From positions 27,840,116 to 27,904,115 of the forward strand of contig NC_081363.1 in NCBI RefSeq assembly GCF_030684315.1: 64,000 nucleotides of DNA. Reading direction: 5' to 3'. This stretch comes from Stegostoma tigrinum (lineage: Eukaryota). The first letter of the stretch is position 1, and the number at the start of each line of letters is the position of its first letter. A program made the position numbers and the translations under genes. The notes beneath the pieces are model-generated. The model had not been told where the DNA came from, searched no databases, and saw nothing but the letters and a program-made list of their open reading frames with translations. Below, piece by piece: positions 14,699 to 62,832 of the stretch.

Positions 14699-14801
14699 GA
14701 GATGCCGGAGAATCCGAGGCCTGAAAGCCTAGGCCTGAAACATCAGCCTTCCTGCTCCTTTGATGCTGCTTGGCCTGTTGTGTTCATGTAGCTCTACACC
14801 A
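14699..14801. mobile_element. Family A pseudo-LTR insertion with inverted tail and 14-bp TSD
   Basis: TTTTTTTGTAATAA at 14685-14698 and 14802-14815; inverted tail piece gagatgccggagaatccgag followed by a sense pseudo-LTR. Confidence 0.8.
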
Positions 14802-21485: not shown

Positions 21486-21571
21486 GGCTGTTTAGCCTTT
21501 GCTCATCACTCCATGCCATGGAGCATTCTATTGAATTGTAGTGAACCTCCCTAGTGACCTATCTGTCAGCC

Positions 21572-21815
21572 TGATCAGAATCACACTTCGCCAACCCCAA
21601 CCAAGTCAACCCGATCAGAATCACACCTCCCCCCACAAGTCAACTCAATCAGAATCAGACTTTATCCCCCCAAGTAAACCCAATCAGAACCAAACGTTAG
21701 CCCCCAAGTCAACTCGATCAGAGGTCACACTCCCTCCCCCAAGTCAACTCGATCAGAATCACACCTCCTCCCCTGGCAAGTCAACTCGATCAGAATCACA
21801 CTTTCCCCTAAGTCC
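21572..21815. repeat. Minisatellite, about 35-bp unit, about 7 copies
   Basis: Repeated caagtcaactcgatcagaatcacac plus a variable C-rich linker. Confidence 0.9.
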
Positions 21816-40072: not shown

Positions 40073-40397
40073 AAGGGGTCACCTTATGGTCTTTGCAGCT
40101 GATGGAGAGTCCCACTCACTCGGACAGAAGATCAGAAACCTGAACACAAGCCCCCCAGAATTTCTTGAACATTTTCTGTTAATCACCCACCCTGCCCACT
40201 TTGAGTTTCGTGGAAATTTGTCCCATGTCCTTTGTGCCTAAGAAAGGTCTGAAAAGATTTTTGTGCAGTTCAATGCTGACAACCATCTGCCAACTCACCT
40301 AAGTAACCCCAATTCAGCTCAGCTGGTGAGAGTTGACATGAGTACATCATAGCCAATGTGCTAATTGAACTTCTATTCAATAATTTCCACTGGACGA

Positions 40398-40825
40398 CCA
40401 TAAGACCATTAGGATATAGGAGCAGAATTAGGACATTTGGCTCATTACGTCTTCCCCACTTTTTGATCATAGTTGATATGTTTCTCAGCCTCATTCTCCT
40501 ACCTTCTCCCTGTAAGTCCTTGATCCCCTTACCAATCAAGAAGGCATTTTTCTCTGTCTTAAAGAAACTCAATGACTGGCTCATTGCAGGCAATGAGTCC
40601 CACAGATTAACCACCCTCTGGCTGGAGAAATTTAATCTCATCTCAGTTCTAAAGGGTTTTACCTTCACTCTGAGGTTGTGCCGTCACATCTTAGCTTCTC
40701 CTCCTGGAGGGAACACCTTCTCTTACATCCACTCTGTCCGGGCCTCTCAGTATTCTGTGAGTTTCAACGAAATCGCCCCTCACCTTTCTAAACTCCACCA
40801 AGTGCAGACATAGAATCCTCAACCA
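40398..40825 (-). mobile_element. CR1 LINE 3' fragment
   Basis: KPFRTEMRLNFSSQRVVNLWDSLP. Confidence 0.88.
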
Positions 40826-42894: not shown

Positions 42895-43131
42895 TCTACT
42901 CCTTCATTTTATTTCTCTTTTGTGCCTTAAGTGTACTTGAGGACAACTCTGAGATGGTTAGCAGTCAACCACACCTGTGAGTCTGGAGTCATAAGTAGGC
43001 TAGACTGGGTAGACTGCATCAAGAAGGCAGCTCGCTACCACCTTCCCAATTAGGGATGGGAAATAAATGATGGAAGCCAGTGATGACAAAATCTATGAGT
43101 GAATTAAAAAACCAGGGAGGCTTTTATGTTA
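42895..43131 (+). repeat. Left arm of an inverted duplication (partner 45995-46226)
   Basis: Reverse-complement match with few substitutions and two small indels. Confidence 0.92.
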
Positions 43132-43262
43132 GAGATAATGGGAACTGCAGATGCTGGAGAATCAGAGATAACAAAGTTTGGAGCTGGATGAACACAGCAG
43201 GCCAAGCAGCATCAGAGGGACAGGAAAGCTGATGTTTTGGGCCTAGACCCTTCTTCAGAAAT
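43132..43262 (-). mobile_element. Solo PLE pseudo-LTR, family A
   Basis: gataatgggaactgcagatgctggagaatc...gcctagacccttcttcagaaatgg. Confidence 0.88.
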
Positions 43263-44595
43263 GGTTATGGGATTACTAGCCCAGGAACATAACCACTATG
43301 TTACCGCATCCTCATCTCATGTAGGCACACATCTCTCTCTCCACCCCACCGGACTTTCCTGTCTCCTGTATCTTCTTCCCCTGTCCAACTCACAGAAAGG
43401 CTTTCTTTCCCATGGCCTCCCATTCACCAAGGCATTCGCCTTTCATGATTTGAGTATCATTGCTCGTGCCCAATAGTGCTGTATTACTTATGGTGGTTAC
43501 TGGAAATTATGTCCAGAATGGGTAGCCTGTCAGAAGTACGGTAAGATCAGGAATTTGTACGAAAGGCACATAGCAAATCAAGCCAGCAATATCAAGTAGC
43601 AGGAGATAATTTTCAAAGGACCGTGGAGGTATACATTCTATTAACAAAGCAAAGAAATTGCAGAATAATTTTCCAGTGACTCAGTTTATATGTATTTTCT
43701 TTAACAGTATAAATCAGGTGATTCTGTGACCTGCCATTTCCTCAGAAGTTACACTTAAAGAGAAAATATGCAAGTATGGCCCATGAGTTTCTATTTTCTT
43801 TACTTACAATTAATAGACACAAATTCACAAATTCTTTGCTTGAATGTCCTGTAGCAACAACTTCCAATTGGAAATAGCACATCTTAGAATCAGCCCTATC
43901 CTTCTCGTTATTTCCTCTTTCATTTTATGATACACAGGGAAGACCTTGCAAAGACAGACAAGAACTAGTCAAATCATGTATTTTATAATGTCACCACTCA
44001 GTGACAATGCACACATCATGACACTGTTCTCCCATGTAAAAAGTCATTTTTACAATAAACAGCTCATGGTTGCATTAAAGAACTTCTAAAACCAATACAC
44101 AAACAAATCTTTGCAAACATGCAAGTTGTAGTCCAGAACAGACCACGTCAAAATATTTTAAGAAGGTAGCCTAGACCCTAACTTCTTGTAATTTTAAAGA
44201 TAGATGTGGAAGTGCACATTCCAAATATGATGGGGCTGGTCAAAATACTCAACATTATTCAAAACACAATTTATTTAAATACTACTGTTAAATACAAACA
44301 AAAGAAAGAGGAATTTAGAGTAACTCAACTATTGGAAATCTTAACAGAATAGCAAATATAGTACCTATAACTACTTAGCTGTTCCAATATAGTAACATCC
44401 CATGAACACAACCCTTAGTAAAAAGGGTAAATTCAGACACAGATTCTCACATGAAATTCTCCAATCCACGAGGGAACAATATTAAGCGAAATTTCAGAGA
44501 AAGTAGCAGCTAGGAATCATTCACTGAAGCTTCCAACTCTTCTGAGACTCCAAATGGTTCCTGATTGCTGGAAAGAACAAAACCTAGAAATCCTG

Positions 44596-44860
44596 AGATA
44601 ACAAGGCGTAGAGCTGGATGAACACAACAGGCCAAGCAGCATCAGAGGAGCAGGAAAGCTGATGTTTCGGGTCTAGACCCTTCATCAGAAATGGGAAAGG
44701 GGAGGGGGATTCTGAAATAAATAGGGAGAGAGGGGAAGGTGCATGGAAGATGGATAGAGGAGAAGATAGGTGGAGAGGAGGACAGGACAAGGAGGCAGGG
44801 ATGGAGCCAGTAAAGGTGAGTGCAGGTGGGGAGTTCAGGTGGAGGTTGGTCAATCCAGGG
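44596..44860 (-). mobile_element. PLE 3' end/pseudo-LTR with hammerhead core (44661-44688)
   Basis: Antisense reads CTGATGA-A-GGGTCtaGACCC-GAAA-CATC; homologous to 2330-2594. Confidence 0.88.
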
Positions 44861-44954
44861 AAGACCTGTCCATCTCCTCTCTAGTGTAATATCTAAGACC
44901 TCTCTCTCTTCACATGCTCAATCTGGTCTGTTGTTGTCTATCCCCATGTCTTCA

Positions 44955-45088
44955 TGTGATAGTGATAATGGGAACTGCAGATGCTGGAGAGTCCAAGATA
45001 ATAAAATGTGAGGCTGGATGAACACAACAGGCCCAGCAGCATCTCAGGAGGACAAAAGCTGACGTTCCGGGCCTAGACCCTTCAGCAG
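44955..45088 (-). mobile_element. Solo family A pseudo-LTR with 10-bp TSD
   Basis: CATGTCTTCA at 44945-44954 and 45089-45098. Confidence 0.85.
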
Positions 45089-45994
45089 CATGTCTTCAGT
45101 TGCATTATCACACAGTCAGTTATGACTGACAGGTATCCAGAAGTCTCAGGGGCTGAGGAAGTACAGTTGAGGGGGTCAGCGACATGTTAAGTGGGGTGGT
45201 AATTTTAATAATTACCTAGGACTGAGAGTAGGTGTGTAATCAACTAACCTTTCCTGGGTAAATATTCAGCTTAGGTGATTGAAATCCTAAAAATTCTTTC
45301 TCTAAGGGAATTTTCAGTGAAATCTTCTATTTGAAAGTGTAATTTCTAAGGCAATCCTCATTATAGTCAGCTGCATTTGGGGGATCCACATGGTCTTGAT
45401 GCACAATTCCAGTCTACATTGTGCCAAAATCTCTCTCTGGCCATAGGTATATCTGGTCAAAAATGTGGGTTCTTTCGTTGGAAATAAGACTGTACTGACA
45501 ACATTCATTAGGAGACGGAGAGCATTACATCTGATGTCTATCAGTGCTGTCGCGGACAGACTGTATGTTTTAAGACCAATACATCACATCTTATTGAGAT
45601 GGGTCATGATCAGCAGTAGTTTAGGGCACTTTCCCTTAAAAGCATATGTGCATTACATCACAACAGGTCATATAAACAGTAATATGATAACGATCTATTA
45701 AATTGTTACCTGGAAATGTAAATTGAAGGATAAAAATTGACCAGGATCTTGGAAGGACTCCTCTACTCTTCCTCAAACAGTGACATGGAATCATTTCCAT
45801 TCATCTGAGAGTTCAGTGGTTTGATTCAAAAGATGGCACATCTGCTCAAGGAGTAACTTGACTAGATGAGCCAAATGGCCTCTTTCTTTGCTATAAATGA
45901 CTGTGACTCTTCCTTGGTACTGCTAACTACTGAAGGACATTACATTTATGACTAAATGAAGGTAACGGTAAGGGTGACCATGAAACTGCCAACT

Positions 45995-46226
45995 TAACAT
46001 AAAAGCCTCCCTGGTTTTTTTTAATTCACTCATAGATTTTGCCATCACTGGCTTCCATCATTTATTTCCCATTCCTAATTGGGAAAATGGTAGCAATGCA
46101 GTCTACCCAGTCTAGCCTACTTATGACTCTAGACTCACAGGTGTGGTTGACTGCTAACCATCTCAGAGTTGTCCTCAAGTACAACTAAGGATTATGCACA
46201 AAAGAGAAAGAAAATGAAGGAGTAGA
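45995..46226 (-). repeat. Right arm of an inverted duplication (partner 42895-43131)
   Basis: Reverse-complement match. Confidence 0.92.
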
Positions 46227-46961
46227 CTAAAATTGCACAAAGGAAAACGAGACTATTTGAACAAACTAATGATCAATTGTCTTTGTCCTGCACAGCTTAT
46301 TTTGATCTGCTGTATTAGAGCCAGTAAGGTGGAAGGGTGAGGGGGGCAGTGTAGTGGGGTGGTTGGGGGCGGGGGGGTGGTGCGGGAAGCCTTCTGAGGA
46401 TCACAGTTTTCCATAAACGTAATCTCATTATGTCATGTCAAAGCATTAATTGGATCTGTCAAGCATAGATATGAGTTGAAACATTTTGCAATCAAGTAGC
46501 TGCTTGCTCCAGATGCTCCATTTGGTCCTTGTTCATTATCATAATTGGCAGTTCTATACTCAGAGACCTCTCAAGCTGGAATGAATATGACAATTTTCCA
46601 CCATCTATTTAGTTCATGTTTTCCAAGTAGCAAATTCTACACCATTAAGCACTCAATGCAATTAAAGCACTCGTAATCCTGACACAAAATGCAATTTGAG
46701 GAGGAAATTCTTTTTATTTTACTGATTTAATGTGCTCCTGGATGTATTAATATCTCACACTAAATACACATCTGTATTATAGTCAGATCTATATGGACTG
46801 CTAGCATGGTGATTTGCCACCTATAGAATAGATCAGGAGAATATTGTGAGTGTTTTATGCATTTTCTAACAAACACACCAGTAATGTAAGTGCAACCTCG
46901 GTCAACACATGTAGAAAGTAAGCTATTCGCCCCAAGGAGGAGCAGGCATACCTTTATAAGT

Positions 46962-47177
46962 AAAAACTGAAAGAACTCTGGGTGTTGGAAATCAGAACCA
47001 AAAACAGAAACTGCTGGAAAAGCTCAGCAAGTCTGGCAGCATCTGTGGAGAGAAATGAGAGTTAATATTTCTAGTCCAGTGACACTTCCTCAGAACTGGA
47101 TCCAAAACATTAACTCTTGACTTCTCTCCACGGACACTGCCAGACTTGCTGAGCTTTTCCAGCAATCCCTGTGTTTG
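46962..47177. mobile_element. Family B fold-back element with probable 11-bp TSD
   Basis: Inverted arms ctgctggaaaagctcagcaagtctggcag / ctgccagacttgctgagcttttccagca; CC(T/A)TTATAAGT at 46951-46961 and 47178-47188; minus-strand AGTT-CTGAGGA...GAAA-TATT-AACT. Confidence 0.82.
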
Positions 47178-48719
47178 CCATTATAAGTTATCTTGAACAG
47201 AAACAAATAATGTTCACTGAGAAGTGTGAGTTCCATAACAATCCCATCACATTGCTTTGAGTTTACACAATGGATATGAAAGTAACACATATGCGCAGGT
47301 TTATCGTAAAATAACATCTTCATTCAGTACTAGTTCAATGCAGAATAATAAAATATGCTTAGCTGCAATCCAGAGGTAAGAACCTATCAAAAGTAAATAA
47401 CTTCATCATTTCTGCATTATATTTCATGACTCAAATAAATCTTCTTGATTTAGAATGCACAGAATGTATTTAAAGTATTCCACTGCCTTTATTGAGATAT
47501 GCAATATGTTCATTGTGATATAGCTTTGAGGTTTCAATTCCAGTAATGACATTTCCTACTAACATAGTATACTTCATAGGTTTTCCTATTAAATATTTAA
47601 AAAGAGACAATTTAAATGCTGATGTGAAAAAACAATACATCCATGTAATCACTCACCTAAATATAACTGTTAATTGATCATACCCATGCTAGATTTAAAG
47701 GGAGAACAATACAATAGATGATGGGCATTATGATTGATTTGGAGGATGGTTAATTGAATTAAAGCACAGATAAATTCATGTCACTGGGAAATGAAATCAT
47801 TTTGCAATAAAGATTTAGCATTTCTCAATACTCAGTTATTGTCAGGGAATTGTAAAGTAAATTCTGTCACTGGATGTGTTAAGGCTATTTTAAAGTGAAC
47901 TTCTACAGCAAAAAGATCCTTAAGAATTAGCTCCTATCTCTCACTGCCAGTACCAATGTTAAACAATGCACTGAGCGCATCATTCAAGACACGCAATTCA
48001 ATAAATCACACCAGGGCATTAATAGCCAAGCTCAAGGAATGAATATGAAACAACTACCAGAAATTATTGTTCCCTGCTTGTTCTTTATCTGTTCTTTACA
48101 AGGAAGGAAGAATAATGTACCTTAATTTAACAGTTCATTCAAATGGATTGCAGATTCAGGAAGTGTGGTACATCATTTGTGCTGTAAATTAGAGTAACAT
48201 ACAAAGCACAGAGGGGAAACTAACTGTTAAGGCAGCAGATGTGTTTCCAAAGAATAGATGTTGATTCAACAGCAGTTGATGTGAATCCAGACTGTATTTT
48301 TCCCACTTCACATGGTATACTCTGCACTGTATTCTTGCATTAGCTGCGTGACTTAACTTCTGACTGTCCAGTGCACACTAATTAAATGAGAAATTTGTCA
48401 TGAACAGGATCCCAGAAGCTAAAATAGTTTCCAGGAAGTGATCTCAAAGGACGGCACAAGTATGATTTTGGTTGTGACACTTTTGATGAGAAAACTCCCA
48501 CAATTGTAAAGGAAATAGGAATGGAAATTTCCATAGCAAGTGTTGTTAGATTGGTTTAGTGGTATTTACATTGCAGTAAAATATTTTACTCATGTACAAA
48601 CAAACAAATCAGTAGCAGGAACTGGCCATCTAGCCTTTCAAGCCTATTGCCAGATATGACTCCAGACAGCAGAAAATTTTCTCCTTAAATTCAGTGACTC
48701 CAATTTTGCTAGAGTTCCT

Positions 48720-49870
48720 TGATGCCTCACTCAGTCGAATGTGTCCCTGATGTCAAAGGGCTGTCACTCTCAGCTCACCTCTGGAATTCACCTTTTTTGT
48801 CCATGTTTGAACCAAGGCTGTAATGAAGTCAGGAGCTGAGTGGTCCTGGTGGAGCCCAAACCGGGCGTCACTGAGCAGGTTATTGCTGAGCAGATGCTGC
48901 TCAGTGTAGAACTTTTGACACTTTCCATCACTTTACTGTGATCAAGAGTGCTATTCCCGGAATGTTGTCAGAACCATAGTCATTGTAGTATGCAGTGCCT
49001 CCAACCATTCCTTGACATCATGTGGAGTAAATCAAATTTGCTGAATACTTGTACCTCTAATGCTGGGGACCATTGGAGAAGGCTGAGATGGATCATCCAC
49101 TTGGCACTTCTGGCTAAAGATGGCTACGAATGCGTCAGCCTTATCTTTTGCACTGATGTGCGGGACTCTTCCATCATTGAGGATGGGGATATTTGTGGAG
49201 CTTCCTCCTCATCCAGTAGGTTGTTTAATTTTCCACTAACATTCATGACCAGATGTGGCAGAACTGCAGAGCTTAGATCTGATCATTCCTTTTGGAATCA
49301 CTTAGCTCCATCTATCACTTACTGCTTGTGCTGTTTGGCAGGGAAGTAGTCCTGTTTGGAAGCTTGGCCATGTTGACACCTCATTTTCAGGTATGGCATG
49401 CCCTCCTGCACTCTCCATTGAACCAAAGTTGATCCCCTGGCTTGATGGTAATGGTTGAGTGTGGGATATGCCAGGCCATGAGGTTACAGATTATGCTGGT
49501 GTACAATTCTGCTGCTGTTGATGGCCCACAGCCTTACAGTGACAGTGCCACACAAGATAATGGAGGGTATCCTCAACGTGAAGGTGGAACTTCGTCTCCA
49601 CAAGGACTGTGCAGTGGTCACTCTTACCGATACTGTCATGGACAGACACTTCTGCAGCCGGCAGATTGATTAGGATGAGTTCAATTATGTTTTTCCCTCT
49701 TATTTGTATCCTCACCATCTGGTGCAGAATCAGTCCAGCAGGAATGTCCTTTAGAACCGGACCAGCTCGATCAGTAGTACTGAGGCTGATCCACTCTTGG
49801 TGGTGGCATTGAAATCCCCCCCAAGTGTCCTTGCCATCCTCAGTGCTTCTTCCAAGTATTGTTCAATCAG
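48720..49870 (-). mobile_element. Degenerate LINE (AP-endonuclease/linker region), probably the same group as 10878-11760
   Basis: GGDFN motif; NLPAAEVSVHDSIGKSDH (APE C-terminal SDH). Confidence 0.75.
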
Positions 49871-49884
49871 CCAAGTGAGGGGTG

Positions 49885-50190
49885 GAAAGAGAGGAACAGA
49901 AACAGATGGACAGAAACAGAGGGACAAAAACAGAGGGGCACAGAGTGGCGCAAACAGAGGGGCACAAACAGAAGGGCACAAACAGAGGGGCAGAAACAGA
50001 GGGGCAGAAACAGAGGTCGAGAAACAGAAGTCGAGAAACAAAGGACAGAAACAGAGGGCAAAAAACACAGTGCATGAAACAGTGGGCGCGAAAGAGAGGG
50101 AAAGAAACAGAGTGATAGAAAAAGAGGGCGCAAAACAGAGAGTGCGAAACAGTGGGGAGGAAATAGATGGGCAGAAACAGAGGGCACAAA
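49885..50190. repeat. Purine-rich low-complexity tandem repeat (about 16-bp AAACAGAGGGGCAG units)
   Basis: Directly visible. Confidence 0.9.
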
Positions 50191-50194
50191 AGTG

Positions 50195-52140
50195 TGATAA
50201 GTTCCTCAACCCCATCCTCCTGCTTTCTCCCTGTAACCATTGGTCCCCTTGAAAGTCAAGAAACTATCTAACGCAGCCTTAAGTATACTCAATGACCTGG
50301 CCTCCACAGCCTTCTGTGGCAGTGAAATCCATAGATTCACCACTCCCTGGCTGAAGAAGTTTCTCCTTATCTCCATTCTAAAAGGTCCCCCCTTTACTCT
50401 TAGGCTGTGCCGTCAGGTCCTAGTCTCTCCTACCAATGGAAGCATCTTCCCAACATTCACTTTGGCCAGGCCATTCAATATTCTGAAAGTTTCAATTAGA
50501 TCCCCCCTCATCCTTCTAAACTCCACTGAATATAGTCCGAGAGACCTCAAATGCTCCTCAAATGTTAAGCTTTTTCATTCCAGGGACCATTCTTGTGAAC
50601 CTCCTCTGAACCCGCTCCAGGCCAGTACATCCTTCCTGAGATATGGGGCCCAAAACTGTACGCAATACTTGAAATGTGGCCTGACCATAGTCTTGTAAAG
50701 CCTCAGTAGTACATCCCTGCTTTTATATTCAAGTCCACTCAAAATAAATGCCAACATTGCATTTTCCTTCCTGATTACTGATTCAACCTGCAAGTTTACC
50801 CTGAGAGAATCCTGGACTAGAACTCCCAAGTCTCTTTGTACTTCAGAATTCAGGATTTTCTGCCCATTTAGAAAATAGTCCTTGCTTTTATTCTTCTTAT
50901 CAAAGTGCATGACCTCACACTTCCCCATGTTGTACTCCATCTGCCATTTCTTTGTCCACTCTCCTAACCTATCTGCAGCCTTCTGCAGCCTCCCCACCTC
51001 GTCAACACTACCTGTCCCTCCACCTGTCTTTGTATTGTCTGCAAACTTAGCCAGAATGCTCTCAGTTCCTTCATCTGGATCATTAATGTATAAAGTGAAA
51101 AGTTGTGGTCCCAGTACTGACCCTTGTGGAACACCACTTGTCACCGGCTGCCATCTTGAGAAAGACCCTTTTATCCACACTCACTGCTTTCAGCCAGACA
51201 GCCAATCTTCTATCCACGCTAGCACCTTGCCTCTAACACCATGGCCCCTTGTCTGACTCAGCAGCCTCCTGTGTGGCACCTTATCAAAGGCTTTCTTGAA
51301 GTCCAGGTAAATAACATCAATTGGCTCTCCTTGGTCCACTCTGCTCATTACTTCCTCAAAGAATTCTAGCAGATTTGACAGGCATGACCTCCCCTTGATG
51401 AAACCATGCTGACTTTGCTCTATTTTACCACACATTTCCAAATATTCAGCAATCTCATCCTTTACAATGGACTCCAAAATCTTACCCACGACCGAGGTTA
51501 CACTAATCAGCCTATAGCTTTCCGCCTTTTGCCTTACTTCCTTCTTAAACAGGAGCGTCACCTTAGCCATTTTCCAGTCCTCTGGGACCCTCCCTGACTC
51601 CAGTGAATCCTGAAAGATCATCACTAACGCTTCCACCTATCTCTTTAGTTAACTCCTTCAGAACTCTGGGGTGTAGTCCACTTGATCTAGGTGATTTGTC
51701 CACCTTCAGGCCAATCAGTTTTATTAGCACCTTTTCCTTGGTGATGGCCACCATACTCTGTTCTGCCCCCTGACTCTCTTGAATTATTGGGATATTGCTC
51801 GTGTCTTCCACCATGAAGACTGATGCGAAATAGTTATCCAGTTCTTCAGCCATTTCTTTGTTCCCCGCTACCATCTCTCCATCATCATTTTCCAGAGGTC
51901 CAATGTCTACTTTTGCCTCTCTTTTGCCCTTTATGTACCTAAAGAAACTCATACAGTCTTACAGACTGGCTAGCTTACCCTCATATGTAATCTTCTCCCT
52001 CCTTATTTCATTTTTTGTTGCCGTCTATTGGTCTTTGTAAGCTTCCTAGTCCTCTGGTTTTGCACTGCCCTTTGCCATATTGTATGTTTTCTGTTTTGGT
52101 TTTATGCTATCCCTGACTTCCTTACTCAGCCATGGTGGCC
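50195..52140 (-). mobile_element. CR1 LINE, about 1.9 kb, RT domain with frameshifts
   Basis: [54 protein letters not shown]. Confidence 0.96.
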
Positions 52141-52557
52141 GTATCCAGGTTCTTAATGAATTCAGATTCCACCATCTGTCTTGGCAAGATTCAAGCCTAA
52201 GTTCCCAGAAAATTACCTTGGTCTCTGCATTCGTAGTCTTGGCTGATGGATAATACCACTAGACAATAAACTCCTCATCATCATTTTCTCACGTTATACT
52301 ACTTTTTCCAGTACTATGACCACTCACTTTATTTATCTTTATCCCCAATATCCTCCTTATGACCTCCCTACAATTTACTTTTCTCCTTATCTTTATATCA
52401 TCAACATATATGATAACCATACCTCCCATTCTTTCATTCACATCATTTATATAAATTAGGAAAAGTTAAGAATTGATTCCTGTGATTCACTTCTCATTTC
52501 ATCCCACATACCAAAAAATGACCAATTTCTGTCAACAACGAATGAACCTTCTATCTG

Positions 52558-52751
52558 AGATAACAAGGTGTAGAGCTGGATGAACACAGCAGGACAAGCA
52601 GCATCAGAGGAGCAGGGAAGCTGACGTTTCAGGCCTAGACCCTTCTTCAGAAATTTATGAATTTCTGATGCTGCTTGGCCTGCTGTGTTCATCCAGCTCT
52701 ACACCTTGTTATCTCGGATTCTCTGGCATCTGCAGATCCTATTACCTCTGA
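52558..52751. mobile_element. Family A fold-back element with 13-bp TSD (1 mismatch); intact hammerhead core on - strand at 52623-52650
   Basis: AACCTTC(T/C)ATCTG at 52545-52557 and 52752-52764; CTGAAGA-A-GGGtctaggCCT-GAAA-CGTC. Confidence 0.88.
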
Positions 52752-52794
52752 AACCTTCCATCTGTGTTTGTATATTACCTTTAGACCCGTATAA

Positions 52795-52922
52795 AGAGCT
52801 GACCTCGACTGAGTGTTGCAGACTGGCACATTCCAAGGTCCAGGATCACATGCTGAGGGATGCACTACAGCTTGGGACAGCTGCCACCATGGTACAGTGC
52901 AAAAAGACCACCGAGGCAGCCT
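52795..52922 (+). mobile_element. Tx1/L1-clade LINE ORF2 C-terminal fragment
   Basis: ELTSTECCRLAHSKVQDHMLRDALQLG resembles the Tx1-type ORF2 end (from memory). Confidence 0.55.
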
Positions 52923-53825
52923 GTGACTGCTCAAGTGAAATAAAAATCATTAAGAAGGCAGGCCAGAAATACAGGCACAGCAAATGGAATAAATAGGGCA
53001 TCGAAACTGGACAATAAGTGAAGCATGCTAGGAAGGGGCAACACAGTGTGGAGCTGGAGGAACATAGCAGGTCAGGCAGAATCAGAGGAGCAGGAAAATT
53101 GGTGTTTCAGGTCAGGACCCTTCCTTAGAAATCTAGCCAGGAATGCCTGGTATAAGACAATTCTGCCTGGGAGCAAGATCCAAGCCCATACAAGTGAAAC
53201 CAGAGAGGCACCAGAACACATCAGGAAGTGTGAAAGGGCAATTCAGCCCTTCCTGACAAACAAACTAAACTAGATGCATGGTGCAGACATGCCGCAGTAA
53301 GACAAAAGACCAGGTGTATATTCTGGGTTAAAACCAGACTCCCCAGCCCAAGAACAGACACATCAAAGCAGTCATTGTTAAGCAAGTCAGTGAGAGCCAT
53401 TAGCAGCATTTCAAATTGATAAAGTCAATTAATTCAATACCTCTGATTGGTCAAGTCCTTGGAAAGCTCCGGAAGGTAACTGGCAAAACCTGGGGTACCC
53501 AACTCTCCAGCCTACCTAGGGGCACATTGGGATACAGCAGTGACCACGGCAGCTGGTCCTCCAACAAGAAAGAGAATCAACCCACAAACAGAGGAACAGA
53601 GTGAACAATTCAACAGACCAGCAAAGTTACCGAGTATCTGGGAAGTATTTCAAGTTTCTAAAGAACCAGATAGTTAGCAATAGAGTTGTTAGAAGTGTAA
53701 AGATTTAACACTTAACCTCTGTCGTCATCGAAAAGGATTGTGAACTGGTTCACTGACTGCAGACTCATGCTGTGTAGTCATTTCTTGATACATGCTAAAG
53801 CACCTGGGTAAATTAATATTGTGTA

Positions 53826-54082
53826 AGTGATAATGGGAACTGCAGATGCTGGAGAATCCAACATAATGATATGTGAGGCTGCATGAACACAGCAGGCCAA
53901 GCAGCATCTCAGGAGCACAAAAGCTGACGTTTCGGGCCTAGACCCTTCTGATGAAGGGTCTAGGCCCGAAACGTCAGCTTTTGTGGCTTTCTGATGAAGG
54001 GTCTAGGCCCGAAACGTCAGCTTTTGTGCTCCTGAGATGCTGCTGGGCCTGCTGTGTTCATCCAGCCTCACATTTCACTATC
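53826..54082. mobile_element. Family A fold-back element with perfect 13-bp TSD and tandem hammerhead motifs
   Basis: TTAATATTGTGTA at 53813-53825 and 54083-54095; near-perfect inverted arms. Confidence 0.92.
53948..54018 (+). ncRNA. Tandem pair of intact minimal hammerhead ribozyme motifs (43-nt period)
   Basis: CTGATGA-A-GGGtctaggCCC-GAAA-CGTC at 53948-53975 and 53991-54018; palindromic ACGT stem III; GUC cleavage triplet. Confidence 0.78.
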
Positions 54083-54129
54083 TTAATATTGTGTATACTG
54101 GTTGAGGAGTCTGCCAGGTCTTGGAGACA

Positions 54130-54380
54130 AAAACAAAGTTGCTAGAAAAACTCAGCAGGTCTGGCAGCATCTGTGGAGGAGAAAACAGAGTTAACATTTC
54201 CTCAGAACAGGTCACTGGACCCGAAACGTTAACTCTGTTTTCTCCTCCACAGATGCTGCCAGATCTGCAGAACTTTTCCAGCAACCTTGTATTTGTGATA
54301 ACAAGGTGTCGAGCTGGATGAACACAGTAGGCCAAGCAGCATCATCGGAGCAGGAAGGCTGACGTTTCAAGTTTTTATTT
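54130..54380. mobile_element. Family B fold-back with 14-bp TSD and a nested family A fragment (about 54296-54369)
   Basis: AGGTCTTGGAGACA at 54116-54129 and 54381-54394; inverted arms. Confidence 0.85.
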
Positions 54381-54524
54381 AGGTCTTGGAGACACCCGGT
54401 TCCAGATAATACCACTCACTATCTGAGATCTTTCTGCCAAAGCATAAACACATATCTGTTCCATTATCAGATCCTCTCGTTGCATTTAATGGATGTAAAT
54501 GGTTTGTTACTTAATTAGGAATGC

Positions 54525-56285
54525 CTTCTGTCCTCACAAAAGAGGACACAAATCGATACCAGAAATGTTGAAGAATGCAAGATTTAATGAGAGGGAAGAA
54601 TTGAGGGAGATCAATATTAGAAGAGAAATGGTGTTGGGAAAATTGATGGGATTAAAGGCAGTTAAATGGCTCTAGAAATAATGATGCATTAGTGATCATC
54701 TTCCAGGATTCTACAGACGATGGAACAGTCCCTGCAGATCGGAGGTTAGCCAATGTCACTCCAATATTCAAAACGGGAGGTAGAGAGAAAACAGGGAATT
54801 ATAGGCCAGTAAACCGAACGTCAGTAGTGGGGAAAATTTTTGAATCTATAATCAAAGACTTTATAGTGGAGTATTTAGAAAGCAGTGGCAGGATCAGACA
54901 GATTCAACATGGATTTATAGAGGGGAAATCATGATTGATAAATCTGTTGAAATTACATGAAGATGTAACTAGTAAAGTTGACAAGGGGGAGCAAGTCAAT
55001 GTGGTACATTTGGAGTTTTTAGAAAGTGTTTGACAAAGTCCCACTTAAGAGATTATTGTGCAAGATTAAAGTGCTTGGGATTAGGGGAAGTGTATTGAGA
55101 TGGATAGGAAACTGGTTGGCAGAGAGGAAACAAAGAATAGGAATTACTGGGTCCTTTTCAAATTGGTAGGCAGCAACTAGCTACTCACAATATGTATTAA
55201 TGATTTGGATGAGGGAAGAAAACATAACATCTCCAAGTTTGCAGACAATACCGATTTGGGTGGGAGGGTGAGCTGTGACAAGGATGCAGAGATCCTTCAG
55301 CATGATCAGGACAGATTGGGTGATTGGACAAATCAATGGCAAATGCTGTATAATTTGGATAAATGTGAGGTTATTCACTTTGGAATCAAAAACAGGAACA
55401 TAGAACAACACAATGCAGTACAGGCCCTTCAGCCCTCGATGTTGCGCCAACCTGTGAAACCAATCTGAAGCCCATCTAACCTACACTATTCCGTTATCAT
55501 TCATATGTTTATCAAAGAGGGCAGATTACTACCTGAATAGCTGTAAATTGGGAGGGGGAATACGCAGTGGGACCTGGGTGTCTTTGTGCGCCAGTTGCTG
55601 ACAGTAAGCGTGCAGGTACAGCAGGTGGTAAAGGAGGCAAATGGTATGTTGGCCTTCATTGTGAGAGGTTTCGAGTACAGGAGCAGGGAAGAATTGTTGC
55701 AGTTACATAGGGCCTTGGTGAGGCCACACCTGGAATATCGTGTGCATTTTTCGTCTCCTTCTCTGGGAAGGGTGCTCTTTCTCTCAAGGAAGTTCAGCGA
55801 AGGTTTACCAGGCTGTTTCCGGGGATGCGTGGGACTGATGTATGAGGAGAGATTAACTCGATAAGGCTAGTTTTGCTGGAGTTCAGATGACTGAGGGGGG
55901 AATCTCATAGAGACCTATGAAATTCTAATAAGACTAGACAGGAGCGGATACAAGGAGAATGTTTCTGATGATGGGTGTGCCAGAACCAGGGGTCACAGTC
56001 CAAGGATTTGGGGTAGACCATTTAGGATGGAGATGAGGAGACATTTCTTCACCCAAAGTGTGTTGAGCTTGTGAAATTCATTACCATAGGAATTAGTTGA
56101 TGCCAAAACATTGAATATATTCAAAAGGTGGCTAGACATAGTACTTGGGGTAAATGGGATCAGAGGTTACAGGGAGAAAGTAGAATTAGGCCATTGAGTT
56201 GGATGATCAACCATAATTGTGATGAATGTCAGGAAAGGCTCAAAGGGCTGAATGGCCTCCTCCTGCACTTATCTTCTATGCTTCT
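54525..56285 (+). mobile_element. CR1 LINE with a nested antisense CR1 tail (about 55397-55515)
   Basis: ANVTPIFKTGGREKTGNYRPV, ISKFADNT, ALVRPHLEY. Confidence 0.93.
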
Positions 56286-59055
56286 AGGTTTGTTTTCGCG
56301 TCTACAGGGAAGCTCTGAGGAATGTCAAATTCCAATGTGCTGTCTGTTTCTTCTCTGCAAAAACTGTTAAGATTTGTTTTAGGACCTTTAGTTATCAACG
56401 TAAGTTCTATGAAACGTATATTTGTGCAATCAAAAAGTCCACCTAAAGTCCTCACTCTCATCCAAATCAGCTGCAAGAAATTCAAACCACATAGATTCCT
56501 AAATAAAACAGATGAAATGACATTGCAAGTCAGGCTTCCCTCCTGGGTCCTTTTCCCTGCTTCAGTTGCAGCTACACTCCTTTATATCTAATAAAATCAG
56601 AGGACTCTATCCAGGTAAATTTTCCCGTTTCTGATGTGTCTCAAGGATGTGTGGATCAGGCTCCAGTGGTTTATCAAAGCTCCTCTGCTCTCAAAAACCT
56701 GCTGCAGATGTATTTGCTCTAGATCATGCTGCACTTCAATTCTGAAAAAGGTCATCCCAGACTCAAATATTAACTCTGTTTCTCTCTCCACAGATACTGT
56801 CAGACCTGTTAAGTTTCTCCCGCACTCTGTGTTTTGTTACAAAAAGTTAGCATGCAGGTGTCACAATTAATTAAGAAGGCAAATTGCCTTTGTTGCTACA
56901 GAGCTGGAGTTTGAATACGAGTGTTATATAGTTCCTCCTTAAAACAAGTTAGACAACTCCAACCAGAATGTTGTGAATGAATTTGTCCAGATGCCCCAAA
57001 ATACCGAAGCGGTCAAATCACTACAAACACAAGGCAATACCAGCGCAAAACAGTCCCAACTTTATTAGGAAACAAGTTGCAATGACTTTTAATACTAAAC
57101 ATACTATCCCTATTCTTACTCAGCCTCTTAAGCTCACAATACATCCCAAGTCTCTTGTCAATTTACACAGTCACACTATCTCTCTGGCTCTGTCTCTGGG
57201 TCTATGAAGCTGCTCTCTCTCTCTCTCTGGGTAGTCAGCTGGTTTCTGCCTCTTACCATGCTGGTCTCCTCAAAAGGCCTCCAAAGTGAGATTGGGCTGC
57301 AGGTGAACCCTGTTCTTATACCTTTATGGATGGTTTTCTGGAACTTTCCATAGTTCCACCTAATCAGGGAGACACACTTAATAGTTTGAAACATTGTCAA
57401 TTATTTGGATGGCTTGTCACTGTTTGTTCCTTTGTGTAGCAGGACCCAGTGCCTTTCTGTCTGTGCCCTCCTTTGTTTGCTGGATAAATTGTTGGGATAT
57501 GTCTCAGCTTTCCTGCTCCTCTGATGCTGCTTGTGTTCAATCAGCTCTACACCATGTTATCTTAGATTCTCCAGCATCGGCAGTTCCTACTGTCTCTGTC
57601 CAGGATAACTGTTGCCTTTTACATTATGCTAATATCATTAGCACCTAGCTGCTGTGTTTGCACTGTATCTGGTGTGTGGGTTTTGTGATTTCAGAGTTTT
57701 ATCGGCCAACATACCCAGCATCCCTTGCTGTTTGGCCAAGTTAACAATCTATCTGAGTTTTAGCAGCCAGGACCCCTGCAATGCAGGGAAGTCTTGGGGC
57801 AAGGGCACAAAAATGCCAGCACTGGAGAGTCTGTCAATTTTCACCTGACATTTTTGAGGCTGAAGGACTCACTAGTCTCAATGATGTCTACGGGGCTTTC
57901 AGTAATTGAAAAGACAAACCAGGTGTTTTTACTGGGGCATGGTTCTGGAGCGATGCTAGGTAGAATTATGGTTAGGAAAGTCAGAAATGCAAAATTTCCT
58001 GCCTACCATGCAGTTTAACCCACTGGAACCCACAACAACACCTCTGCATTCCAATGTGTTCCTGGCCAGCAGCCCGAACATTTCATACTCGTTAAACATG
58101 GGGTCCTTTCAAAACTGATTGCTCACAACAAGATATGTTCACCTATAAACTACATTCTAACTGACCTACATTAATTTCTGATTAAACGTTGCTTTGATTT
58201 CAAATCTCTCTATGGCCTCAACACTCTTTCTCTCTGTAACATCCTTGAAACTCACATTCCTCCAAGACTTCCAGCATATTGGGCATCCCCGATTTTAATT
58301 GCACTACCATTTGTGCTCATGTCTTCGCCTGGCAAGTTCCTTTTTTCCTCCGTGCTCTCTCTCTCTCTCTCTCTCGGTCTATCTCTCTGCCTTCAAACCT
58401 TCTTCTTTGGTCAAGACTTCAGTCTTCTATGCAACTGATTCTTTACATAGACAAATTTTGCTTAATAATCTTCTTGTGAGACACTTTTGAATGTTTTATG
58501 CTAATGGCGCTGTATAAATGCAAATTTATGTTGTGTCAATATTACAATGATACTGTTTGTTAAAAATCTAATTTAAAAGGGTGATATCTACAATGACAAG
58601 CTTTGGTGTGTGACTAAAATGAGAATGGTGAAGGGAGTGAATGTTAAAGGTGGAAGATGGGGTGCCAATTATGCAAGTTGCTTTGTCCTAATTGGTGTTG
58701 AGCTTCTTAATTGCTATTCAACCCTTATTCATCCAGACAAGTGGGGAGTATTCTATCACACTCCTATTTTGTGCCTTTTAAATGGTCGACATGCAGTAGG
58801 AATAATGTAATGAATCTTTTGAAGCACCTATCAGAGTAAGTAGTTAGTATAGGTTTCAGACTGTTCAGTAAGAGATTTAAAACTGTTTACTGAAGAGTCT
58901 TGTGAAGAGATTGATAAATTTTTATTAAAATGCGCAGTAAAGTCTGATAAATGTTGTTTATCCTTGATAAAGTACGCAAAAAAGTTGTGTTGTGTTGTAC
59001 CTTCCCCTGAGTATTGTTCCCTTTGTCTATCTCACCAAGTAACATGGCTGAGTTA

Positions 59056-59178
59056 ATAAAATGTGAGGCTGGATGAACACAGCAGGCCCAGCGGCATCTG
59101 TGCCTGCTGTGTTCATCCAGCCTCACATTTTATTATCTTGGATTCTCCAGCATCTGCAGTTCCCATTATCACTGATAC
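59056..59178. mobile_element. Family A fold-back with perfect 15-bp TSD; hammerhead region deleted
   Basis: AACATGGCTGAGTTA at 59041-59055 and 59179-59193; perfect hairpin stem of about 33 bp. Confidence 0.92.
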
Positions 59179-60189
59179 AACATGGCTGAGTTAGACAGTT
59201 TTGCTGTAAACTGGTCAAGGTTAGTCAGGGTACATTTCCCCAGCATTTCAACTTACAACAGAAGGCTTTGTCACAAACTGAGATCTTTCCTTTAGGACAG
59301 CCAGTAGCCTCAGTGATGGCTGGCACAGCATGTGTAACCAAGTCCCTCACACAGCCCCAGTGGTTCTACGTAGATCAGAAACCCATCTCCTCATGAATTT
59401 AGTGTTGCCCCGTGCCAAAATTTTATTCAGACTGCCCCCGCAGTGCCTGGAGGTGCGTTCCTGGACCAAAATCAATTTTGCTTCCAATCTGTCAGTCTCA
59501 AATCTTTGGTTGTAGCTCAGTGTGTAGTCTATTCTGTTTCTAATCCATGTTAAGCCCAGAATTGTTACGCTGGGGGTTCAGTGATGGTAATACTGTTGAA
59601 TTTAAAGGGAGGATAGTTCACAGGTCGGTGCAACATCGAGGGCCGAAGTGCCTGTTCTGCGCTGTATTGTTCTATGTTCTATGTTCAATTCTCTTTTGTT
59701 TGAGATGGTCATTTCCATGCATCAAAGTTATTTTTTGCTGCTATCAGCCCAACCCTGAACATTGTCCACATCTTGCTGTATGACAAGCCAAGGTCTTGGT
59801 GACACCATCTCATATCTGCTTTGGATCTGAACCAATTTTTTTTTCCACATGCCTCAGTGAAGTGCAGGAAGACATATTTATGCTCGTTAAAGGCACTGTG
59901 TAGATACATATTTTAAATTATTTGATGCTGACAGTGAAAATATGGGCATGTCTGGATTATGACAGGGGCAATAGAGTACACCTATTCATCCTTCAGAAGG
60001 TTAGCCTCGTGAATCAAATTACAGCATTATTTGATATACTGATGGAGGCTCTGTAAGTAGTACGCCATCAAACCTGAGCTTCAGCCTGATCTCAGAAGAC
60101 CACAGAAGAGAGCAAGCAGTTTATTAATATTTCTCCCTGAAGATAATGTTTCACATTACAGCTGAGATGTTGGAATTATTTCATTAGTT

Positions 60190-60530
60190 CTTAGAAAGAC
60201 TTGTATTTATATGGTGCCTTACAGAACCTCAATACATCCAAATGTTTCTTCCCCATCCACTGCAGCCTCTTTGGGCTCAACAAACTTCCACAATATAACA
60301 ATAAACAAATAATCCCTGAATGACATTAGTCCAAGGATAAATACTAGCCAGAACACAGAGAAAGGACCTAATTAGTCAACTAAAGCCATGGAATCTTTTT
60401 CCAAGACTGCAGCTTCATCCAAAAAACAGCATCTCTCATAGTGCAGTTCTCCTTCTGCAGTGGAGTGTCAGCCTGGATTTAGTGTACGGGACTTGAAGCA
60501 ATGTCAAATTAATTCTTGAAATCGGAGCCA
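60190..60530 (-). mobile_element. Old Deu-domain-like SINE
   Basis: tcatccaaaaaacagcatctctcatagtgcag...ggagtgtcagcctggattt...gggacttgaa; related decayed pieces near 35400-35770 and 45710-45850. Confidence 0.5.
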
Positions 60531-62168
60531 ACTTATTATTACACAATACTATAAATAATACAATGCAATGGTGATATTGTAATTTGACTAGCCTTAGGAT
60601 ACCCAATTAAACCAATTTAGATTGCTGATATATACTAATATGTCGTGCATGTCAATTCAGTGCTAATTTAAAAAAAACACTCTTAAAAGAACAATACTTT
60701 GTAGTCAACAGATCCAGAATAATCATGACTAGTGGGTTCTGCAGGTCCTCCATTGGAGAATAGTAAAATCTTACAGGTATTTTGGTCATCTCTTAATTAT
60801 TGCCAAGAAAGTATAGTCCTCCATTTCCAGTGTTCTTCAAGCATAACTCTGACTGGGAAAATCAGTAGGTCTTCATCGGGTGCAGCCTAGGTAACATACC
60901 AATCATATATGTCCATAGCTGTGGAAACAGTTGCCAAGCAACAGTTTATGAAGAAATTTTCAAACTGACTGTTTTTAACAGGGCTGAGTGTCTTGAACTA
61001 CACAAGCGTCTTGTTATTTTAAAAGCTCTGTTATAACCAGAGAAAAAAAGCCGTCTAATTTTCTTCAGATTTGAGTCTGAGCTCAGCTTTGAAGTTCCAA
61101 ATGCTTATGCAAAGCTGAATTCAAGTGTTTATTTTGTACAGTTCAATGGGATGGTTGCGTTTAACATGATTTAGCTGATAACAGTAAAATAAGGTGCCTA
61201 TAACGATTGTTTGTACCTAGAGATATCACCCTTTTAAATTGGATTTTTAAAAAGTTATATCCATGTAATATTAACAGAATATCAATTTCCATTTATATAG
61301 CACCATTATCATTAAACATTCAAAGGCTCTTCACAAGAGGATTATTAAGTAAAATTTGTCACCCTAAGGAATCACTAGGACAAATGACAGAAACCTTGCC
61401 CAAATAGGAAGGTTCTTAAGGCTTGTATTGAAGGCAGAGAGAGAGGAGAGAGGGAGAGGGAGGCAGAAATGTTTGGGGGAGGGAGGTTCAGAGCTCAGGA
61501 ACTTGCCAGGAGAAAGCAAGGTCAACAATAGTATGCAACTAAAATCAGGGATGCTCAATAAGCCAGAGATCTTGGAGGATTGTGAGTTTCAAGGAGGTTA
61601 CGGAGAGAAAGAGCACTGAGGCCATAGAGGGATTTGAAAACAAAGGTAAGAATTTTTAAATCGAAGCATTGCATAACCAGAAATCAATACAAGTTATTGA
61701 GCACAAGGAATATAGATGGACAGGGCTTAGTATGAGTTTTGGATGATCCCACATTAAAAAAGGGTGGAGAATATGGGAGTCTGGTCAGAACGGTACTGAA
61801 GTGGCTGAGTTCAGAGGTTGCAAAGGTTCAACTATAGTTAAGCTGCATGATAAGCAAGGAAACCTGCTCTTCTAGGTTTCCGAATCACAGTAACTACTAG
61901 CTCTGCTCCAAAACCATGCCACAAGAAACACTGTTGGTTTATCTTTACAATTACTGAGGAGCCTGTGGATGACCTTCAGCAACTGGTGCATCCATTAGAT
62001 AGTATAGTTGGCCTAAAGTTTTGTCTGAATAAACAGACTGCTTATCTGACATCCAGTACTGTATGAGCACAAATACTGGGAAGTTCAAAGCTATTGTCTT
62101 TGATCCTTGCTACTGACTCCACTCCTTTCTTTGGCAAAACATTCCAAACAGGCTAATTCACAACTTAA

Positions 62169-62395
62169 GTGAGATAATGGGAACTGCAGATGCTGGAGAA
62201 TCCGAGATAACAAAGTGTAAGGCTGGATGAATACAGCAGGCCAAGTAGCATCTTAGGAGCACAAAAGCTGACGTTTTTGGGCCTAGACCCATCATCAGAA
62301 AAGGGTCGAAGGGTCGAGGCCGGAAATGTCAGCTTTTGTGCTCCTAAGATGCTGCTTGGCCTGCTGTGTTCATCCAGCTCCACACTTTGTTATCT
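62169..62395. mobile_element. Family A fold-back with 16-bp TSD (2 mismatches)
   Basis: CTAATTCACAACTTAA at 62153-62168 and CTAATTCACGATTTAA at 62396-62411; inverted arms. Confidence 0.88.
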
Positions 62396-62832
62396 CTAAT
62401 TCACGATTTAATGTCATTTTTGACCCTGAGATGAACTTCCAACAACATATCTATGTCACCCCAGGGCATGTTTGAATGTTTTTTCGCCAGTTGCTATCTA
62501 GAAACAGGCCCACTTGACAGTGTGGGTGGGTGGATTCGTTGGTGGGTCGGTTGGTTGAGACCCAGGGGGTCTTGTGGTGCCATGTCCTTACCTGGGTTCA
62601 AGTACTACTTGCTCTTGAGGTGTTCAATAACATCTCTGAACAAGTTGATTGGAAAAATAGGTTAATTCTTTTATTAAAAAGCAGTTCCAATATTTTGATT
62701 TAATCCCTTTCTGCTCTTCCAACTCAACCTTCCCCTCGGCTTCAATAGTCAGTATTTGCCCATAATGGGCTTTGTTTGTAAACGTTCAATTGGCTACAGG
62801 TGTTTCACTGTTGGTGTTTAGCAAGTTAAACT

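Follow-up and report, generated by a model that had tools for sequence, protein, structure and literature searches.

Short head-to-head pseudo-LTR insertions in a Stegostoma tigrinum window are small versions of a published Penelope-like element layout

The window analysed here, a 64,000-nucleotide stretch of Stegostoma tigrinum contig NC_081363.1 in which no host exon was recognised, contains the remnant of a coding Penelope-like element (PLE) and 22 loci made of PLE pseudo-LTR (pLTR) pieces. A sequence-only reading had listed seven of these loci as fold-back elements, an inventory that missed two inverted loci, at 37121-40073 and at 44596-44884, along with 13 single-arm loci. All counts below refer to this one 64-kb window with 9 inverted loci, 7 of them chosen by that reading. 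Its density of one insertion per 9 kb is correct as a mean, but the seven are clustered, 6/7 lying inside 46.9-62.4 kb (KS p = 0.007). The features discussed are the following.

1331-2594, forward strand: 5'-truncated, frameshifted remnant of a predicted Neptune-type PLE (thumb, CX4CxxC linker, GIY-YIG)
3221-3339, forward strand: single A1 arm, tailed, probable flush direct repeat of 7 bp
8662-8770, reverse strand: single A1 arm, tailed, no TSD
14685-14815, unstranded: tail-only piece plus A1 body, non-overlapping inversion, 14-bp TSD each side
37121-40073, unstranded: large head-to-head coding pair, subfamily A0, 2.95 kb, arms 75% identical
43131-43264, reverse strand: single family A arm, tailed, 5' end at -6, no TSD
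44596-44884, unstranded: A1 arm (44596-44861, reverse strand) plus inverted 18-nt piece
44961-45088, reverse strand: single A2 arm, tailed, flanking direct repeat of 10 bp exact or 14 bp with 2 mismatches
46951-47188, unstranded: family B fold-back 46962-47177, 11-bp TSD, 1 mismatch
52545-52764, unstranded: family A1 fold-back 52558-52751, 13-bp TSD, 1 mismatch
53040-53132, reverse strand: single A0 arm without tail or TSD, 5' end at -4
53813-54095, unstranded: family A2 fold-back 53826-54082, 13-bp TSD
54116-54394, unstranded: family B fold-back 54130-54296 plus family A1 arm, 14-bp TSD
57498-57600, forward strand: single A1 arm, tailed, no TSD in an ungapped test
59041-59193, unstranded: family A2 fold-back 59056-59178, 15-bp TSD
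62153-62411, unstranded: family A3 fold-back 62169-62395, 16-bp TSD, 2 mismatches

Two side observations concern single arms: the one at 43131-43264 adjoins an inverted duplication of its own flank, and a gapped 12-13 bp TSD candidate at 57498-57600 is ambiguous.

The remnant at 1331-2594 terminates in a family A3 pLTR; neither a tail nor a TSD was found there. It aligns with RVT_1 and GIY-YIG proteins of sharks and others, the parent element showing 76% identity to proteins of whale shark and 63% to those of zebra shark in which RT and GIY-YIG were matched, and the zebra shark protein runs on into the same pLTR; in the remnant itself GIY-YIG is matched weakly (E = 0.011). Cysteines C61 and C66 are invariant and the linker reads CX4CxxC in the window frame. 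A CX2-5CxxC linker upstream of GIY-YIG marks Neptune and Nematis (PMC8557442), and vertebrate PLEs have been reported as Neptune or Poseidon. Judged from its sequence, the family A parent is an EN+ PLE, probably of Neptune type. The proposed origin of the short repeats from PLE pLTRs is supported. The coding remnant and the arms have the TTATCT end in common. Family B has no coding partner in the window; the A and B profiles cross-match and the layout is common to both.

All seven insertions carry a direct repeat of 11-16 bp at each end without any gap, as had been claimed, the lengths in order being 14, 11, 13, 13, 14, 15 and 16 bp with 0-2 mismatches. These TSDs are unrelated sequences and enclose complete inserts of 103-257 bp. 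The proposed comparison with chance also favours them (7/7 loci), as a direct-repeat score of at least 10 occurred in 0.34% and of at least 8 in 3.4% of 5000 random pseudo-element trials, and under a flush-only rule a score of at least 8 was reached in 10/1500; the only cross-paired control with a high score (13) is explained by the 47-bp spacer common to 53826 and 54130. The TSDs are AT-rich on average (68/96 bases, 71%, vs 58% in the window; p = 0.006), but single TSDs range from 50 to 93%. No paralogous empty site with one TSD copy was found within the window.

Inside each TSD lie head-to-head pLTR pieces with outward-facing 3' ends (7/7). Six of the seven are real hairpins, with folding z of -10 to -25 against doublet shuffles (40 per strand) and uninterrupted helices of 26-60 bp including G-U pairs, so that the suggested seeding of RNA hairpins is structurally possible, as predicted by folding, for these six. 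It does not extend to 14699-14801, which was rejected as a fold-back: its pieces, a 20-nt tail-only stretch (14699-14718, reverse) and an A1 body without tail (14719-14801, forward), do not overlap and its folding z is -0.67. The description as two inverted pieces of one repeat was likewise rejected for 54130-54380, a nested composite of the family B palindrome 54130-54296 and a single A1 arm (54297-54368, reverse) that occupies the expected place of the B tail, followed by a possible tail remnant of ~10 nt at 54371-54380. Centres differ between copies as stated, 0/7 sharing a centre or arm lengths; later deletions could have altered arm shapes.

An extra tail on one side had been claimed for these insertions, and exactly one is present in 6/7, shortened to the 20-nt piece at 14699, whereas 54130 keeps only the possible remnant. 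The tail lies on the left, reverse-strand arm at 46962-47177, 53826-54082, 62169-62395 and 37121-40073 (left arm 37121-38317; right arm ~38318-40073, forward, no tail) and on the right, forward arm at 52558-52751 and 59056-59178. At 53826, 59056 and 37121-40073, and probably at 54130, the tailed arm is the shorter of the two; at 46962 and 62169 it is the longer. Among inverted pairs one full or partial tail is found in 7 and a remnant in an 8th (0.5^7 = 0.008), and 0/7 clear pLTR pairs have two or zero tails. Tail-less family A arms stop exactly at TTATCT in 2/5 cases, the other three ending about 1, 5 and 8 nt short of this proposed end point, and the family A tail carries a TTATC-like motif at each of its ends. 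No TSD was found at 37121-40073. At 44596-44884 the 18-nt inverted piece is upstream PLE sequence, 17/18 identical to the coding copy, and neither a full tail nor a TSD was found.

The label hammerhead-bearing applies to part of the set, the core being intact in 2/7 loci: the left arm of 52558 (at 52650) and, twice, the right side of 53826 (at 53948 and 53991), where there is a 42-bp partial tandem (53946-53987); 59056-59178 has no hammerhead sequence. In the window 5 core matches vs 0.16 expected point to a putative hammerhead at the level of the family; in family A its helix I has only 2 bp, and an Rfam search gave no match at gathering thresholds. Of the family A arms, 18/21 reach 5' of the putative cleavage site. 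Among the 11 that reach the core, 7 end in -6..+1, no arm ends between -7 and -172 and 4 pass this boundary (constant-hazard null, p = 4e-6, or 0.003 if the hazard is tripled; 6/9 at one arm per locus). Where the alignment ran too far into low-complexity sequence, as it did for several arms, the 5' end was set by eye. The tailed arms of 46962 and 62169 reach -5 and about -3. Such stops just upstream of the hammerhead suggest run-off at the RNA 5' end.

Did each locus arise in one integration event? The seven are drawn from family B and from subfamilies A1, A2 and A3, and both arms belong to one subfamily in 6/6 family A pairs (permutation p = 3.4e-4) and in 8/8 when family B is added, with labels read by eye and a tree that broadly matches. 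TSDs are present at 7/9 inverted vs 2/13 single-arm loci (Fisher p = 0.007), a contrast inflated by TSD decay because the family B single arms are older; since 2/13 single arms have TSDs, inversion is not required for one. Both results support the claim of one event per locus. Moreover, the arms within 46962, and those within 54130, have private letters in common; those of 62169 differ at 10/86 sites and neither is the other's nearest match.

We consider it probable that ordinary retrotransposition of Neptune-type PLEs gave rise to these loci as its shortest products, each of them formed afresh and then inert. The GIY-YIG endonuclease would nick both strands 11-16 bp apart, a stagger read from the TSDs, and each nick would prime reverse transcription inward. 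One primer would start at the tail end and the other at the tail beginning, giving a single tailed arm, and the one-tail pattern suggests that the two start sites are coupled on one RNA or particle. Both cDNAs would run toward the RNA 5' end, which apparently precedes the hammerhead core by about 4-6 nt; this would be the cause of the observed boundary that limits the arms to lengths of about 100 nt and 135 nt. The cDNA ends would then join by microhomology of 2-4 nt or filler, a repair step suggested by the junctions seen, such as the 4-nt overlap at the centre of 46962, and gap filling would leave one TSD. Where priming fails at one end, that end may often be resected, yielding a single arm without TSD. 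For another PLE, nicking and extension of both strands and two start sites bounding the tail have been shown in vitro, with start-site use equal between strands, which neither shows nor excludes coupling (PMC11167929).

Priming at both staggered nicks, as the sequence-only reading had proposed, is the best-fitting mechanism, although 2/9 inverted loci have no TSD and 44596-44884 no full tail. The main competitor is fold-back self-priming, in which cDNA from a single nick snaps back on an internal inverted repeat and copies itself, one tail being trimmed by endonuclease or repair. Self-priming on an antisense template is favoured for PLE inverted repeats in the Discussion of PMC3846280, and the one-sided tail has been ascribed to endonuclease-mediated resolution (PMC8557442). 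Fold-back accounts directly for arms of one subfamily, suits the natural 3-4 nt inverted micro-repeats used at the junctions of 53826, 62169 and 46962 and expects the tail on the longer arm seen at 46962 and 62169. We nevertheless judge it unlikely: at 53826, 59056 and 37121-40073 the copied shorter arm has a tail that its template lacks, the pieces at 14699 and 44596-44884 overlap little or not at all, and the tail-less arm ends near a fixed site and not at random. Because of the tails on shorter arms at three loci and the non-overlapping pieces at 14699, neither arm appears to have been copied from the other.

Priming at both nicks could also use two independent RNAs with random 5' truncation, the -5 boundary being a polymerase stop at a C/U-rich tract. 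Arms that overlap do call for either strand displacement or a second template, a pyrimidine-rich tract lies immediately before -6 in the coding copies and 4 arms pass the boundary; this version, however, predicts pairs with zero or two tails in at least half of the cases, against 0/7 found, and is quite improbable. Very improbable is a self-propagating, non-autonomous MITE- or retrozyme-like class, whose palindromes would themselves be transcribed or excised and then re-inserted. Small size, inverted arms, TSDs and seven copies in 64 kb would fit, and non-autonomous PLE derivatives exist (10.64898/2026.07.22.740005; PMC8557442), but centres and arm lengths are never shared, four sequence groups are involved, TSDs vary between 11 and 16 bp, the core is intact in 2/7 and head-to-tail arrays are missing, while sizes grade into the 2.95-kb coding pair. 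Least probable of all is that the palindromes were built by one insertion following another at a single site, or by ectopic recombination of adjacent arms at a later time. pLTR pieces are dense (22 loci in 64 kb) and a PLE within a PLE is seen in the A1 arm at 54297-54368, but a single flush TSD encloses both arms in 7/7, the arms are of one subfamily in 8/8 and they have private letters in common at 46962 and 54130.

The loci are tiny versions of the published PLE insertion layout and, since centres and subfamilies differ, independent dead ends left by a Neptune-type PLE; they form no new element class. The earlier proposal of a retrozyme/MITE-like class fails on the lack of a common centre, the four sequence groups, the one-sided tail, which leaves the inverted repeats non-terminal at one end, and a layout already published for full-size PLEs and present at 2.95 kb in the window. 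The origin of PLE inverted pLTRs and of the one-sided tail is termed undefined in PMC8557442 and the post-priming steps unvalidated in PMC11167929; the consistent layout hints at the workings of this poorly understood insertion step. As both ends, junctions and TSD lie within less than 260 bp, counting such loci across the genome could, by computation alone, discriminate between priming at two nicks and fold-back and also locate the 5' end of the RNA. Short PLE palindromes also risk mis-annotation as MITEs. It could be imagined, as a tentative and rather doubtful extension, that PLE integration is obligately two-ended, a dimer gripping one RNA at two tail-bounding motifs and priming both nicks, with the RNA starting just upstream of the hammerhead so that the run-off mini-palindrome is the commonest product. 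If so, shark genomes would be a vast natural archive of the PLE insertion reaction, duplexes of 25-60 bp could, wherever they are transcribed, supply dsRNA pathways, and a local inversion like the one suggested at 42895-46236 could result from mis-paired nicks.

Among known systems, animal non-LTR retrozymes are likewise non-coding, PLE pLTR-related and hammerhead-related, but are described as head-to-tail arrays with a hammerhead per unit (10.64898/2026.07.22.740005), whereas the shark loci have a head-to-head arrangement and, for the most part, no intact core. This assignment was rejected, as unit ends do not lie at ribozyme cleavage and there are no tandem units, the partial tandem at 53826 being the only array-like feature among the loci. 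MITEs resemble the loci in being short and non-coding with inverted repeats and a TSD (PMC8969392), but the loci have no fixed unit or symmetric termini, a variable TSD and an RNA-mediated origin; a MITE was rejected within the window for want of a fixed-length multi-copy unit (0/7 with the same centre) and for the one-sided tail and TSDs of 11-16 bp. In L1 twin priming two sides of a break prime on one RNA and produce an inversion (Ostertag and Kazazian 2001, via PMC2246262), a layout matched by 14699 and 44596-44884; at most loci, unlike in L1, the arms cover the same sequence from fixed sites ~33 nt apart and form a palindrome. Anolis Poseidon PAc in vitro shares nicking and extension of both strands, AT-rich targets and the two tail-bounding start sites; uncleaved RNA is the template, the RNA 5' end sets product length and a dimer is predicted (PMC11167929), the difference being its Poseidon clade as opposed to a Neptune parent. 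Canonical EN+ PLEs (Adineta vaga Pen2a, Drosophila virilis Penelope) have head-to-head pLTRs, one TSD (8-10 bp in rotifer), a tail of 30-40 bp at one end and 5' truncation (PMC3846280, PMC8557442, PMC2377424); the shark loci differ in having no ORF and no second direct pLTR, a size of 103-257 bp, TSDs of 11-16 bp and several copies per 64 kb. Schistosoma mansoni PLEs also show opposite-strand minimal hammerhead pairs 100-700 bp apart beside many singles, read as truncated PLEs (PMC4209133); as described there these pairs are known by their motifs, and the shark loci add TSDs, tails and junctions.

The seven short loci built from pseudo-LTR (pLTR) pieces of Penelope-like elements (PLEs) are genuine single insertions. 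All seven intervals are bounded by flush direct repeats of 11-16 bp with 0-2 mismatches, as the sequence-only reading had claimed, and these exceed chance, comparable scores being reached in 0.3-3% of 5000 random pseudo-elements, or in 10 of 1500 when only flush repeats were counted. Their description as AT-rich holds for the pool (71% AT, 68/96, versus 58% in the window, p = 0.006) but not for each target-site duplication (TSD), individual TSDs ranging from 50 to 93%. An empty-site search with 14 flanks against the window matched other pLTR copies only. Profiles made from window copies and run on the window and on a reversed control identified 22 pLTR loci covering 11% of the window; in the reversed control family A gave no match and family B, the second pLTR sequence family, one weak match (E 0.43). 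Thirteen loci are single pLTR pieces (arms), one additional arm is nested at 54297, and nine loci are inverted (forward-strand coordinates):

14699-14801, 46962-47177, 52558-52751, 53826-54082, 54130-54380, 59056-59178 and 62169-62395: the seven short loci, each named by its start
37121-40073: large head-to-head coding pair, 2.95 kb; left arm 37121-38317 with the extra 3' piece of about 30 nt (tail), right arm about 38318-40073 without tail
44596-44884: arm followed by an inverted upstream piece of 18 nt; lacks a full tail and a TSD

Flush TSDs are present at 7/9 inverted versus 2/13 single-arm loci (p = 0.007), a contrast that is confounded by age for family B. The large pair has no TSD, and its arms are 75% identical. 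When hidden inverted pieces were sought past the 5' end of 15 arms, 44596 alone stood out (score 15), the scores of 12-13 at 3221 and 9774 lying within the null. Since six of the seven short loci fall within 46.9-62.4 kb, the proposed density of one per 9 kb is merely an average over a clustered distribution.

That each short locus arose by one integration event is supported by the single flush TSD at all seven and by arms of the same group in 8/8 pairs when family B is counted as one class. Four groups within family A were assigned by eye from diagnostic sites and are broadly recovered in a tree of 19 of the 20 arms (the 59056 right arm was too short), most forks of which are weak; both arms belong to the same group in 6/6 family A pairs (permutation p = 3.4e-4), with a handful of letters in the tail deciding the label of 14699. 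In 54130 each arm is the nearest match of the other, in 46962 this relation is one-way only, and the arms of 62169 differ at 10 of 86 sites, with mutual ranks of third and fourth.

Six of the seven loci form long hairpins (folding z between -10 and -25; helices of up to 26-60 bp, G-U pairs counted). The exception is 14699-14801 (z -0.67), whose left 20 nt consist of tail and whose right piece is a tail-less body. The description of the loci as two pieces of one repeat falls short at 54130-54380, which mixes both families, being a family B palindrome in which a family A arm replaces most of the B tail. This arm, within 54297-54380, is inserted at the arm-tail boundary of the family B element and apparently cost the B tail some 25-30 bp, as judged against one B tail copy. 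Small tandem duplications of about 7-42 bp, resembling miniature partial tandems, are seen at the right-arm 5' end in 3/7 elements (14719-14737, 53946-53987, 62303-62316).

Where do the arms end? With numbering that starts at +1 where the hammerhead core begins, and with some ends read by eye, 7 of the 11 family A arms that reach the core stop in -6..+1 and none between -7 and -172 (clustering p = 4e-6; 0.003 with tripled hazard; 6/9 counted per locus). Similarity is lost 1-5 nt upstream of the core in 7/10 arms of family B, a family with no upstream reference sequence for comparison. Run-off at the RNA 5' end is the simplest reading of this boundary, the alternative being that it is caused by a polymerase stop. 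A canonical splice acceptor at -5 was rejected as its source, AG being absent there in 3/3 coding copies. An initiator-like YYANWYY at -6..+1, spotted by eye, is a weak match to the consensus. Introns are known inside PLE pLTRs, and a pyrimidine tract inside the pLTR that ends in AG, with ATG next to it (54236-54256, and other arms of family B and subfamilies A2/A3), resembles a splice acceptor.

How could two opposed arms arise in a single event? The tail asymmetry noted in the sequence-only reading was confirmed, exactly one tail being found in seven clear pLTR pairs and a remnant in an eighth; if tails were chosen independently, the probability would be at most 0.5 per pair, hence 0.008 for seven, or 0.02 for 8/9 with 44596 as a miss. 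Among single loci, 5/7 of family A carry tails and 0/6 of family B a full one. Fold-back self-priming, a form of the self-priming favoured in the Discussion of PMC3846280, would have a single cDNA snap back on a short inverted repeat and copy itself, so that the tail is expected on the longer, loop-owning arm. This is the case at 46962 and 62169 but not in the large pair or at 53826 and 59056, nor probably at 54130. For 52558 there are two readings, a symmetric locus altered by a later deletion or a further contradiction of the expectation, and 14699 consists of two pieces without overlap. The centres, read by eye, show 2-4 nt microhomologies at 46962, 53826, 59056 and 62169 and, at 52558, a short filler; both fold-back and priming at two nicks predict this. 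Between primer and RNA, the microhomology at the ends of arms without tail amounts to 5, 2, 1, 1 and 0 nt in five of seven arms, the other two being mis-anchored. For the Anolis PLE PAc in vitro, PMC11167929 reports that both strands are nicked and extended, with a dimer predicted, that two start sites bound the tail and that the RNA 5' end sets product length. Taking these results together with the evidence from the window loci, we consider the best model, with moderate confidence, to be that both nicks prime, each from one of two start sites, whereupon the cDNAs would run off at the RNA 5' end and their ends would then be joined by microhomology. By whatever route, the loci are very probably ordinary single PLE insertions, and their value lies in what they tell about the PLE insertion mechanism.

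The coding remnant at 1331-2594 is 76% identical to a whale shark and 63% to a zebra shark protein, and its protein relatives match RVT_1 and GIY-YIG. Its frame in the window contains a CX4CxxC linker and cysteines within the GIY-YIG motif, features given for Neptune and Nematis (PMC8557442). The zebra shark protein continues into the pLTR of family A. These hits suggest a carpet shark as the host. No coding partner for family B was found within the window; the family B profile cross-matches family A. A 42-residue pLTR-plus-tail peptide searched as the start of a longer protein gave one candidate and none at E <= 0.01, which is weak evidence on whether the tail forms the start of the ORF, and an Rfam scan of the window gave no match at gathering thresholds.

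No host exons were recognised, 0/121 window frames matching Pfam, a search that short exons would escape; in a set of 12 frames two match RT, one weakly an integrase and one weakly TSLP, below cut-off. Decayed LINE fragments lie at 50575-51958, 15206-15664, 55501-55866 and 40270-40683, two of their frames matching RVT_1 and the others presumably being CR1-like. A 35-bp inverted pair (12610-12644/12952-12986; 80%, 307 bp apart) resembles LINE/SINE 3' ends. Larger inverted duplications are found at 27150-27483/27847-28173 (about 330 bp, 94%, unique spacer of 363 bp), adjoining the weak integrase-core match at 26867-27208 and ending without pLTR, and at 57899-58589/61221-61957, an older pair, about 80% identical, that encloses the 59056 element. 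A further repeat, 42895-43131, recurs inverted at 45995-46236 (about 240 bp, 94% identical, 2.7 kb apart) and stops precisely where the tail of the single arm 43131-43264 ends; this one case may reflect an inversion from staggered breaks, possibly at PLE insertion. Degenerate short-unit tandem repeats at 49751-50263 and 21535-21909 create repetitive open frames.

The seven loci are the small end of a known PLE insertion structure and not a new class. An inverted pLTR with a TSD of 8-10 bp, one arm carrying a tail of 31 bp, is described in PMC3846280, this layout is given as typical of PLEs in PMC8557442, and PMC4209133 reports hammerhead pairs on opposite strands 100-700 bp apart. A literature search, with Repbase, Dfam, subscription papers and supplementary figures outside its scope, found no account of such loci in sharks and, within the same scope, none of twin priming in PLEs. 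In flies, siRNAs match inverted regions of Penelope (PMC3681739), which gives the idea of hairpin RNAs a precedent. The suggested retrozyme/MITE-like class is not supported, as membership in both fails on the features tested: the loci share no centres, and an intact minimal hammerhead core, found five times in the window versus 0.16 expected, is present in 2/7 elements. Helix I of the family A hammerhead has two pairs. Hammerhead cleavage as the origin of the arm 5' ends is rejected, as 18/21 family A arms reach 5' beyond the cleavage site, and the template was therefore uncleaved, as it likewise was for Anolis PAc in vitro (PMC11167929).
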